From NCBI GenBank assembly GCA_019058295.1, contig JAHPZI010000002.1, positions 1 through 64,000 on the forward strand: 64,000 nt of DNA, given 5' to 3'. A program made the position numbers and the translations under genes. The notes beneath the pieces were generated by a model, which was not told the DNA's origin, did no database searches, and saw nothing but the letters and a program-made list of their open reading frames with translations. The DNA comes from Promethearchaeota archaeon (GTDB taxonomy: Archaea; Asgardarchaeota; Lokiarchaeia; Sigyniarchaeales; SOKP01). This document shows, piece after piece, positions 50,650 through 59,317 of the stretch (positions within the stretch are counted from its first letter, which is position 1; each line of letters begins with the position of its first letter).

Positions 50650-51966
50650 ATGGATTATGAAGATTGGTTGAAAAGAAAGAGTTTAGAATATCGAAATGAT
50701 ATTCTTTATTTTGCTGAAGTCAATACTATTGAAATTGCTGAGAAGTTTGGCACTCCTATTTATGTTATTAACGAGCAAATGATTCGAAAAAAATATAAAA
50801 AATTAAAAAAAATGCTCGATTCGGCATATAAGAAAAATAGAATCTATTTTGCTATAAAATCTAACTCAAATTTATCAATTTTAAAAATTTTGAATTCAGA
50901 AGGCTCTTATTATGATTGTTCTTCAACTGGAGAGATTTATACTTGTTTTAAGGCAGGTATTGCTCCCGATAGGATAATTTATACAGGAAACATGTTTACT
51001 GATGCTGATTTTGAATTTGCTGTTAAAAATGATGTTTTAGTTAATTTAGATAGCATTAGTCAATTAAAACGATTAGTTAAGGCATATGATAAATTGGGAA
51101 AGGAAAAAGGAATTGTATCTTTCAGGATTAATCCAGAATTCGGAGCTGGTCACCATGTTCACACAATAACAGCAGGAAAAGAGTTAAAATTTGGAATATT
51201 AGATAACCAAGTTATTGAAGCATATTCAAAAGCCATTGATGAGGGAGGATTTAAAAAATTTGGCATTCACCAACACATAGGTTCAGGAATAATAAATCCA
51301 TATGATTTTGAAAAAGCAGCAGAAAAATTTTTATCAATAATAAAGAATTTAACGAGTACTTTAAATATAGATCTTGAATTTATAGATTTTGGGGGAGGGC
51401 TTGGAATTCCTTACCGTCCAGAAGAAGAACCACTTGATTTAAAAACATATAAAGAAGTTGTGATAACTAAATTTAAAGATTTAGTTGGAGAAGGAAATGT
51501 TGGAACCCCTTATCTAATTATTGAACCTGGACGATATATAACGGCTGAAGCAAGCATAATTTTAACTCAAATTAATACTATAAAAAATAATGGACATAAA
51601 TTGTTCGCAGGAGTCAATACTGGATTTAATACATTAATTAGGCCTACAATGTATGGTTCTTATCACCATATTATACTTTGCAATAAAAATTTACGAGAGA
51701 GAAGCTTAAAATATGATGTAACAGGACCTATTTGTGAATCAGGTGATATTCTTGGTAAGAATCGAGAATTACCAGAGTTAGTTGAGGGCGATTATCTTGC
51801 CATACTCGATGCAGGGGCATATGGTTTTACTATGAGTAGTGTATATAATTCACGCCCACGGCCTGCTGAAATCTTACTCAATGATGGTCTCACATACAAG
51901 ATTAGAAAAGAAGAAACTTACGATGACTTGCTAACCCATCAATTTATTCCAGATCATCTGATGTAA
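50650..51966 (+). CDS. lysA: Diaminopimelate decarboxylase
   Basis: FAIKSN, HIGS, DFGGG, IEPGRY, GPICESGD, GAYG, YNSRPRP. Confidence 0.95.
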   Translation: MDYEDWLKRKSLEYRNDILYFAEVNTIEIAEKFGTPIYVINEQMIRKKYKKLKKMLDSAYKKNRIYFAIKSNSNLSILKILNSEGSYYDCSSTGEIYTCFKAGIAPDRIIYTGNMFTDADFEFAVKNDVLVNLDSISQLKRLVKAYDKLGKEKGIVSFRINPEFGAGHHVHTITAGKELKFGILDNQVIEAYSKAIDEGGFKKFGIHQHIGSGIINPYDFEKAAEKFLSIIKNLTSTLNIDLEFIDFGGGLGIPYRPEEEPLDLKTYKEVVITKFKDLVGEGNVGTPYLIIEPGRYITAEASIILTQINTIKNNGHKLFAGVNTGFNTLIRPTMYGSYHHIILCNKNLRERSLKYDVTGPICESGDILGKNRELPELVEGDYLAILDAGAYGFTMSSVYNSRPRPAEILLNDGLTYKIRKEETYDDLLTHQFIPDHLM

Positions 51967-52080
51967 TCTCTCAATTACATACCAATCAAAATAAATAAAT
52001 ATTTTCTTTCTCATTCTTATATTAGATAAAATTATAAAAATACGATCGATTAAGGCTTGGATACCCTTTAATCGTTCAAA

Positions 52081-52144
52081 ATGAAGATTAGGCGTAATGA
52101 AATCTGTTTATATACAGATTAATGAGAATACTGATCTGCCCTGA
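52081..52144 (+). ncRNA. Candidate box C/D guide sRNA targeting SSU rRNA helix 34
   Basis: C box ATGAAGA (52081-52087), D' ATGA (52097-52100), internal hairpin AATCTGT/ACAGATT, C'-like TAATGA, guide ATACTGATCTGCC (52128-52140), D box CTGA (52141-52144). Confidence 0.7.
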
Positions 52145-52199
52145 ATATTTTTTATAATTTTATCTTATTTTCTTTTTTAAAAAAAGTATAGTATGAAAT

Positions 52200-53021
52200 T
52201 TACAAATTTAAGACTTCACGCGTATTATATATCTTATTTTCTCTATCATCAGCAATAAATTTTATAGCAATTATAGCACCACTTGCGAAGCAGTTTCGAC
52301 TATGTGCTTGATGCTTAAATTCGATACGTTCGCCTGAACCTGCATATAAGATAATGTGATCACCCACAATATCTCCTGCCCGGATTGAATGAATTCCTAT
52401 TTCATTTTTAGCACCAATCTTTCGCTTATTAGGCCCTTTTGAACGTCCAAATTTCGCTACATCATCAATATTAACCCCAAGAGTTTCACTTATCATCTTA
52501 GCAGTAGTTAGAGCGGTACCACTAGGAGCATCAAGTTTCCTATGATGATGTGCTTCAATGATTTCAATATCCCAATCCTTCAAATATTCGGTCAGAACTG
52601 ACGCCATTTTGAAGAAAATATTAACTCCTGTTGCCATATTTGACGAAATAACGGCTGGTGCATTATATTCTTTTACTTTTTTTTCAAATTCTTCTATAAA
52701 TGAATTGGATAATCCAGTAGTTCCAATCACACATCGAATATTATTTTCTACACAAATCATGCAATTTTTTTCAGAAGCTTCTGCCAATGTAAAATCAACT
52801 GCTACCTCTGGTTTTGTCTCGTCAATTACCTCTTTAATTTCCGTAATATTCCTTATTTTTACATGATTCGGGTCCTTTTTGCCCACTAAAACTCCTAATT
52901 CATCACCTACATTCATTAAATCTAAAGCTGCGACAACATCAATATCCTCATCATCAAAAGCGTGTTGACTGATTAACGTACCCATTGAACCTGTTGGACC
53001 AAAAATTAATATTTTAATCAT
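52200..53021 (-). CDS. dapB: 4-hydroxy-tetrahydrodipicolinate reductase
   Basis: GPTGSMG, VIGTTG, IIEAHHHRKLDAPSGTA, RAGDIVGDH. Confidence 0.95.
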   Translation of the reverse strand: MIKILIFGPTGSMGTLISQHAFDDEDIDVVAALDLMNVGDELGVLVGKKDPNHVKIRNITEIKEVIDETKPEVAVDFTLAEASEKNCMICVENNIRCVIGTTGLSNSFIEEFEKKVKEYNAPAVISSNMATGVNIFFKMASVLTEYLKDWDIEIIEAHHHRKLDAPSGTALTTAKMISETLGVNIDDVAKFGRSKGPNKRKIGAKNEIGIHSIRAGDIVGDHIILYAGSGERIEFKHQAHSRNCFASGAIIAIKFIADDRENKIYNTREVLNL

Positions 53022-59215: not shown

Positions 59216-59317
59216 GGGAGGGTGGTCTAGCTTGGTATGATTCCTGGTTTGGGACTTCAAACAGAAAGCTTGGAGCAAAACACCAGGAGGCCGGGGGTTC
59301 GAATCCCCCCCCTCCCA
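59216..59317 (+). tRNA. tRNA-Pro(TGG) with a 28-nt canonical 37/38 intron (59254-59281)
   Basis: Acceptor GGGAGGG/CCCTCCC+A, anticodon stem CCTGG/CCAGG, T arm GGGGG-TTCGAAT-CCCCC; BHB helix TTTG/CAAA with bulges GG|A and AC|A; CCA not encoded. Confidence 0.95.

Follow-up and report, generated by a model that had tools for sequence, protein, structure and literature searches.

Canonical archaeal box C/D sRNAs are 50- to 70-nt guides that act with L7Ae, Nop5, and fibrillarin (reviewed in PMC7994747). One of the described archaeal guides, sR32 of Pyrobaculum calidifontis (PCAsR32), was catalogued by Dennis et al. 2015 (PMC4644070, Additional files 1 and 3) with the 3′ end ...GUGAAGA-UACUGACCUGCG-AUGA, and Pyrobaculum sR23 targets the C located two positions upstream of the sR32 target (PMC4644070). 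In eukaryotes, yeast Gm1428 (snR56, helix 34) has been equated with human Gm1490 (U25), Arabidopsis Gm1431/1434 (snoR19), Dictyostelium Gm1506, Neurospora Gm1423, and Plasmodium Gm1674 (PMC2794176, PMC8817022, PMC8583080, PMC2780460, PMC2656528, PMC11542601); the yeast–human equivalence given in the initial annotation agreed with published accounts (PMC2794176, PMC8817022). The Pyrococcus abyssi column of a review table is blank at the site equivalent to Gm1428.

The sequence analyzed here (the window) was a 64,000-nt stretch from a Promethearchaeota archaeon of the class Lokiarchaeia. Its element at 52020–52170 (+) very probably encodes a small guide RNA directing methylation of one 16S guanosine that is also methylated in eukaryotes. 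Judged from the sequence, it is likely a box C/D sRNA with a predicted Gm at the equivalent of E. coli 16S position 1197, and the conserved unit that carries it measures about 142 nt.

The Lokiarchaeial sRNA and sR32 shared a near-identical 12-nt D guide between boxes C′ and D, pointing by the N+5 rule to the same G of GGCAGGUCAGUA in Pyrobaculum 16S helix 34, but they displayed very different architectures: sR32 was a compact 49-nt crenarchaeal sRNA without the outer helix, the 5′ hairpin, and the D′–C′ hairpin (designated P1, P2, and P3 here), and its 12-nt D′ guide was unrelated to the Lokiarchaeial D′ spacer. The resemblance does not discriminate between common descent of the two RNAs and convergence on one target. 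With sR32 as precedent, the 1197-equivalent target is neither new for archaea nor specific to eukaryotes plus Asgard archaea. Since archaeal box C/D guides are routine and this target was already predicted in Pyrobaculum, the predicted function is ordinary; the novelty lies in the packaging, namely a 142-nt unit with a covarying outer helix, an invariant-loop hairpin replacing the terminal stem, and a stem-closed C′/D′ motif, found in Asgard archaea that are mesophilic and AT-rich and possess, in addition, a bacterial-type RNase III.

Compared to canonical archaeal sRNAs, the Lokiarchaeial RNA harbored the same boxes, kink-turn logic, 12-nt guide, and N+5 geometry, with core proteins encoded in the lineage, but differed in (i) its structured unit of about 142 nt, (ii) P2 in place of the terminal stem (as part of a three-way junction), (iii) a stem-closed kink-turn rather than a K-loop at C′/D′, and (iv) a C–D′ spacer of 9 nt. 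It shared with the eukaryotic family (snR56, SNORD25/U25, and AtsnoR19) the identical target nucleotide of rRNA (yeast G1428), a size of more than 100 nt, an external stem, and a D′–C′ hairpin; in Neurospora, however, this site is addressed by the D′ guide of CD19 and CD41 (PMC2780460), and in the Lokiarchaeial sRNA it falls to the D guide. Neither the 77-nt core nor the 400-nt region matched the SNORD25 or snR56 models of Rfam at E ≤ 10, and the only hint of homology with snR56/SNORD25 is the guide similarity imposed by the target.

Genomic setting and box C/D core

The element was located inside the dapF–lysA/dapA–dapB lysine cluster, between lysA (50650–51966, +) and convergent dapB (52200–53021, −). 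Pfam confirmed both gene identities (lysA with its Orn/DAP decarboxylase domains) and with them the convergent setting that had been described initially. The source genome, a Lokiarchaeial MAG with a completeness of 79% and a G+C content of 30.7%, contained neither 16S nor 23S among its contigs; both are present in close relatives, on which rRNA-related conclusions about this genome must rest.

The 64-nt core (52081–52144, +) displayed the order C–D′ spacer–D′–P3–C′–D guide–D, with box C near its 5′ end and box D near its 3′ end as in box C/D sRNAs: box C AUGAAGA (52081–52087), matching six of the seven positions of the consensus RUGAUGA; the 9-nt D′ spacer UUAGGCGUA (52088–52096; TTAGGCGTA in DNA letters); box D′ AUGA (52097–52100), a degenerate CUGA; box C′ AUGAGAA (52122–52128); the 12-nt D guide UACUGAUCUGCC (52129–52140); and box D CUGA (52141–52144). 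Boxes C and D′ were each one base off consensus. The GA dinucleotides of all four boxes were nevertheless invariant across orthologues, and so were CUGA of box D in the 53 aligned orthologues, AUGA of box C′ in the same number of sequences, and AUGA plus the following G of box C; the canonical AUGAUGA was found as box C in L027, L095, G039, and the copies of genus g8, and box D′ varied as ACGA, UUGA, or CCGA. The spacing from C′ to D was exactly 12 nt, and that from C to D′ was 9 nt (10 nt in one orthologue). As the sequence itself shows, a 3-nt bulge separated P3 from box C′, which corresponded to kink-turn geometry, and the internal D′/C′ pair together with covarying P3 and this bulge could form a second kink-turn. 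The reading of four boxes proposed in the initial annotation was thereby borne out by the invariant GA dinucleotides, the 12-nt C′–D spacing, and the canonical box C of some orthologues, and all its coordinates were correct, including those of a hairpin at 52047–52074, a 13-nt guide AUACUGAUCUGCC at 52128–52140, and box D. Rfam assigned the element to no family at gathering or permissive thresholds. A T-rich tract at 52167–52178 (+), ending in T6 (52173–52178) and read from the sequence, was a candidate oligo-T terminator.

As for the protein partners, L7Ae was encoded in the source genome, while nop5 and a true fibrillarin gene were not found in the 79%-complete MAG, in which the fibrillarin model gave a weak methyltransferase match. 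Adjacent nop5–fibrillarin genes were present in 28–29 of 30 relatives, including 8 of the 9 genomes of the same genus, so the C/D machinery belongs to the lineage, and the absence of these genes from the source MAG is best put down to incompleteness.

The D guide and its predicted 16S target

The D guide paired with GGCAGGUCAGUA of 16S through 11 Watson–Crick pairs and one G-U pair, and this duplex was available in all nine 16S genes recovered from the order, including those of same-genus G007 and same-family G016; complementarity in the host is inferred from these relatives because the source 16S was not assembled. With respect to the 16S of the relatives, the 12-nt guide stood directly upstream of box D with its predicted target at N+5. 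When the guide was shuffled, 6 of 2,000 versions matched G007 16S plus 23S as well as the real one. The complement GGCAG(A/G)UCAGUAU, which the initial annotation had given as a conserved archaeal 16S sequence, was present in nine relatives; its A/G position was G in them, hence the G-U pair with the guide. This G-U pair lay directly beside the target pair in nearly all orthologues, and in L095/G013 a C replaced the wobble U, turning G-U into G-C.

C52136, five nucleotides upstream of box D, paired with the first G of CAGG. This predicted target G corresponded to E. coli 1197 in a MAFFT alignment with E. coli rrsH and to G1428 of yeast 18S; the yeast numbering was checked on five metagenomic 18S sequences of exactly 1,800 nt, which matched 23 of 23 known modified positions, and each of these yeast-type sequences had the target G at position 1428. 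The two assignments made in the initial annotation, a G near E. coli 1197 and yeast Gm1428 (snR56), agreed with these comparisons. The guides were both aligned to the rRNAs of relatives as had been proposed, with the result that the D guide matched 16S and the D′ guide was left without a convincing target. No other perfect target of the D guide was found in the contigs of the source genome. A seed-complementarity scan of this genome for other C/D sRNAs yielded 236 candidates, mostly coding, and missed the present locus owing to its G-U pair.

The mechanism that we propose would run as follows. The gene would either stand alone or ride on the 3′ end of lysA; L7Ae, Nop5, and fibrillarin would assemble on the C/D and C′/D′ kink-turns; base pairing of the 12-nt D guide would capture the 3′ strand of 16S helix 34; and fibrillarin would 2′-O-methylate the G opposite the fifth guide nucleotide counted back from box D, namely the counterpart of E. 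coli 1197, yeast Gm1428, and human Gm1490. This amounts to a nucleotide-level prediction for cultured relatives: Gm at 16S position 1197 (E. coli numbering).

Helices P1 to P3 and distribution of the unit

The MFE fold of 52020–52170 (−35.5 kcal/mol; z = −3.9 versus shuffles) included three helices: (i) P1, in which the 5′ strand AGAUAAAAUUAUAAAAA (52024–52040, +) paired with the 3′ strand UUUUUAUAAUUUUAUCU (52149–52165, +); (ii) P2, a long 5′ hairpin (52044–52077, +) with the invariant loop UGGAUACCC at 52058–52066; and (iii) P3, the D′–C′ hairpin (52101–52120, +), whose arms AAUCUG (52101–52106) and CAGAUU (52115–52120) covaried. When the P1/P2/P3 model was placed on A1, an alignment of 53 distinct orthologues, 95.5% of cells were paired, compared to 58–61% with slid helix registers, and both-side pair changes numbered 16 versus 4.0 ± 1.2 in column shuffles.

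P1 was a near-perfect 17-bp duplex with 95% of cells paired and both-side changes in 10 of 18 pairs; it was mostly invariant, but both strands had changed together in L053 and L026, and L092 and L029 harbored a helix of entirely different, still complementary sequence. Its 5′ strand contained the TATA-like TTATAAAAA (52032–52040) of the initial annotation: the location stood, while the promoter reading did not, the element being one strand of a covarying helix. As such, it must be transcribed, which places the promoter further upstream or in lysA. P2 folded as an 11- to 16-bp hairpin in all 46 distinct orthologous sequences, with a lower stem rich in compensatory changes, and the hairpin annotated earlier at 52047–52074 proved real as the core of this longer one. 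The P2 loop GGAUACC was invariant, GAUACCC occurred in 53 of 53 sequences, and GAUACC was kept even in the divergent f2 and f3 orthologues; no second P2-type hairpin was found elsewhere in the source genome. P3 had 97% of cells paired with U-A to C-G exchanges, all its pairs were replaced by GC-rich ones with complementarity kept in G026 and G039, and one clade had a version extended to roughly 32 nt. The D′–C′ hairpin, flagged initially as unusual for compact archaeal sRNAs, was therefore real and covarying; the canonical archaeal C′/D′ motif is a K-loop and not stem-closed.

A direct 5′/3′ terminal stem beside boxes C and D was absent, the flanks not pairing with each other; P2 abutted box C and P1 abutted box D, so that the usual terminal stem was replaced by a three-way junction. 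This arrangement, which we take to resemble a k-junction, may represent a k-junction-like form of the C/D kink-turn. In the mechanism proposed above, the 64-nt core would be embedded by the outer 17-bp P1, the 5′ hairpin P2, and P3 in the unit of about 142 nt, with P2 standing in for the terminal stem and forming the three-way, k-junction-like arrangement together with P1, and with P3 closing the C′/D′ motif as the canonical stem of its kink-turn; P1 and P2 might nucleate folding or direct processing, P1 possibly via the RNase III of the lineage.

Two further structural candidates were discarded. RNAalifold preferred a pairing of the P3 3′ arm (CAGAUU, 52115–52121) with GAUCUG of the D guide (52132–52138), and this pairing was treated as incidental because it was lost in G026 and G039. 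By-eye inspection of the P1/P2 junction for a BHB motif gave no 3-nt/4-bp/3-nt arrangement. If formed, the pairing of the P3 arm could mask the guide.

BLAST recovered the block at 70–89% identity from 16 other genomes of the family, where it lay in AT-rich intergenic DNA, and this, together with the 53 orthologues of A1, answered the call in the initial annotation for a check of intergenic conservation in Lokiarchaeia. Among GTDB genomes, the element lay just downstream of lysA in 41 of 53 lysA loci, and convergent dapB was present in 27 of those 41; it also persisted where dapB was not adjacent and in other genomic contexts. A covariance model recognized the element in 95 of the 121 genomes of the family and gave weaker matches in two sister families. 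The strict pattern GATACC..ATGAWG..CTGAYCTGNNCTGA had one copy each in 96 of 400 Asgard genomes, all of one order, and the reversed-pattern control over these 400 genomes gave zero matches; this pattern itself demands CUGA, and CUGA conservation among its matches is thus no independent evidence. The guide segment ACUGAUCUGC was nearly invariant over three families, and in the divergent orthologues of the two sister families (G026 with 51% GC, G039, and those of genus g8), P3 was rebuilt from different, complementary bases, whereas the boxes, the P2 loop, and the D guide were kept.

Partial second copies were observed about 1–1.4 kb downstream in G064 (L173:2672–2800), G111 (L164:1927–2055), and G110 (L158:2971–3099). 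They carried the same D guide and P1 3′ strand without P2; the G064 copy kept both box pairs, and those of G111 and G110 were 3′ halves only. In genus g8 (L179:96–209 and 470–609 of G049, L180 of G072, and L181 of G114), a divergent version was present whose guide was interrupted by one inserted base (ACUAGAUCUGC or ACUUGAUCUGC); G049 also harbored a typical copy whose box D was CUAA, and this copy may be decaying.

Alternative readings, processing, and significance

The position between convergent genes, a flanking 16-nt perfect inverted repeat, and the T-runs would fit a structured terminator or 3′-UTR stability element shared by lysA and dapB, or a small inverted-repeat mobile element, with C/D boxes that are there by coincidence. 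Conservation speaks strongly against this reading, which we regard as very improbable: the boxes and the guide were the most conserved parts, the guide matched 16S, the element was kept without adjacent dapB and in other contexts, and the occurrence of one copy per genome at a syntenic site means that it is not a dispersed repeat. The flanking repeat pair had its only exact match in the source genome at this locus, and a second, weak pair (20783/20973) fell inside a coding region, so that the repeat was rejected as a general promoter or dispersed repeat. A different rival accepts a C/D-type RNP but assigns it, on the model of U14 or U3, a main role as a chaperone of rRNA folding or as a processing cofactor: it would keep helix 34 unpaired and reach a second rRNA segment through the P2 loop or the D′ spacer. 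A size and additional domains beyond those of simple guides, together with the G-U pair adjoining the target pair, would suit such a role, and the P2 loop GGAUACC had a sole rRNA complement, the heptamer GGUAUCC at E. coli 1081–1087 in the same 3′ major domain of 16S, but about 5 kb of rRNA should contain a 7-nt match by chance alone. This site was rejected as a partner since the heptamer also occurred, to the same extent, in genomes in which the search had not found the sRNA, and the rRNA flanks contained no complement of the loop. The D′ spacer, with about 35 variants among orthologues, weakly matched the 23S 5′ end (GACGCCAAU/UACGCCUA) and 23S 2502–2510 (GAUGUCGGC); these two sites and 16S 514–522 (GGUGCCAGC) did no better over 26 nine-nucleotide variants than promiscuous G/U-rich sites, and no rRNA site fitted more than 12 of the 26. 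The initial annotation had likewise been unable to assign this upstream guide, and the 9-nt D′ spacer would be a weak or inactive guide. The exact 12-nt C′–D spacing and the N+5 geometry are requirements of a methylation guide, and a principal chaperone or processing function appears unlikely.

The remaining rival concerns the extent of the mature RNA: the methylation guide would be the compact 64-nt core only, with P1 and P2 restricted to a precursor and cut or trimmed away, P1 for example by a class 1 RNase III. A protein of this kind (242 aa, Ribonuclease_3 plus dsrm) was encoded in the source genome (G000, contig C14, about 74307–75035; L138:1435–2163) and in 25 of 30 relatives, its model matching none of the four archaeal control genomes, and it is a candidate for the enzyme cutting P1; Rnt1p of yeast cuts snoRNA precursors. 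The near-perfect 17-bp duplex of P1, the synteny behind lysA (41/53 loci), which suggests co-transcription, and the extra copies without P2 in G064, G111, and G110 also favor a trimmed core, but the sequence of the P2 loop was invariant, a constraint unnecessary for a simple spacer or processing stem, G001 kept P1 with no RNase III match, and 17 bp is short for a bacterial-type RNase III. Moreover, G026 (51% GC) had a clear TATA box TATAAAAT about 70 nt upstream of P2, and P1 was weak there, which suggests that its element has a promoter of its own. On balance, a mature RNA consisting of the core alone is a tentative possibility that deserves attention but is not the one we favor; the preferred reading is still a methylation guide within the unit of about 142 nt.

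A bolder version of the guide hypothesis is that Lokiarchaeia make this RNA by a eukaryote-like route and architecture, in which the external stem is cut by RNase III (compare Rnt1p), C′/D′ is stem-closed, and the invariant loop is an extra module that binds rRNA or protein; the RNA could then descend from an ancestor of the pan-eukaryotic snR56/U25 family. We give this a small chance only. Should P1 and P2 turn out to be processing or assembly signals, the unit would offer a testable archaeal model for the origin of the longer, stem-flanked eukaryotic snoRNAs and their biogenesis, and the C/D kink-turn would gain a natural variant built on a three-way junction.

Two minor observations were made besides. 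The 23S 5′ terminal region of relatives (L036, L041, L048, and L038) displayed a tandem ACGCC motif (GACGCCAAUACGCCUCC), of which the majority D′ spacer matched the first copy and the spacer of the source genome itself the second, a suggestive but statistically weak correspondence. Elsewhere in the window, Rfam called a 102-nt tRNA at 59216–59317 (+; 52.5 bits) that was absent from the ARAGORN output and is probably an intron-containing tRNA.
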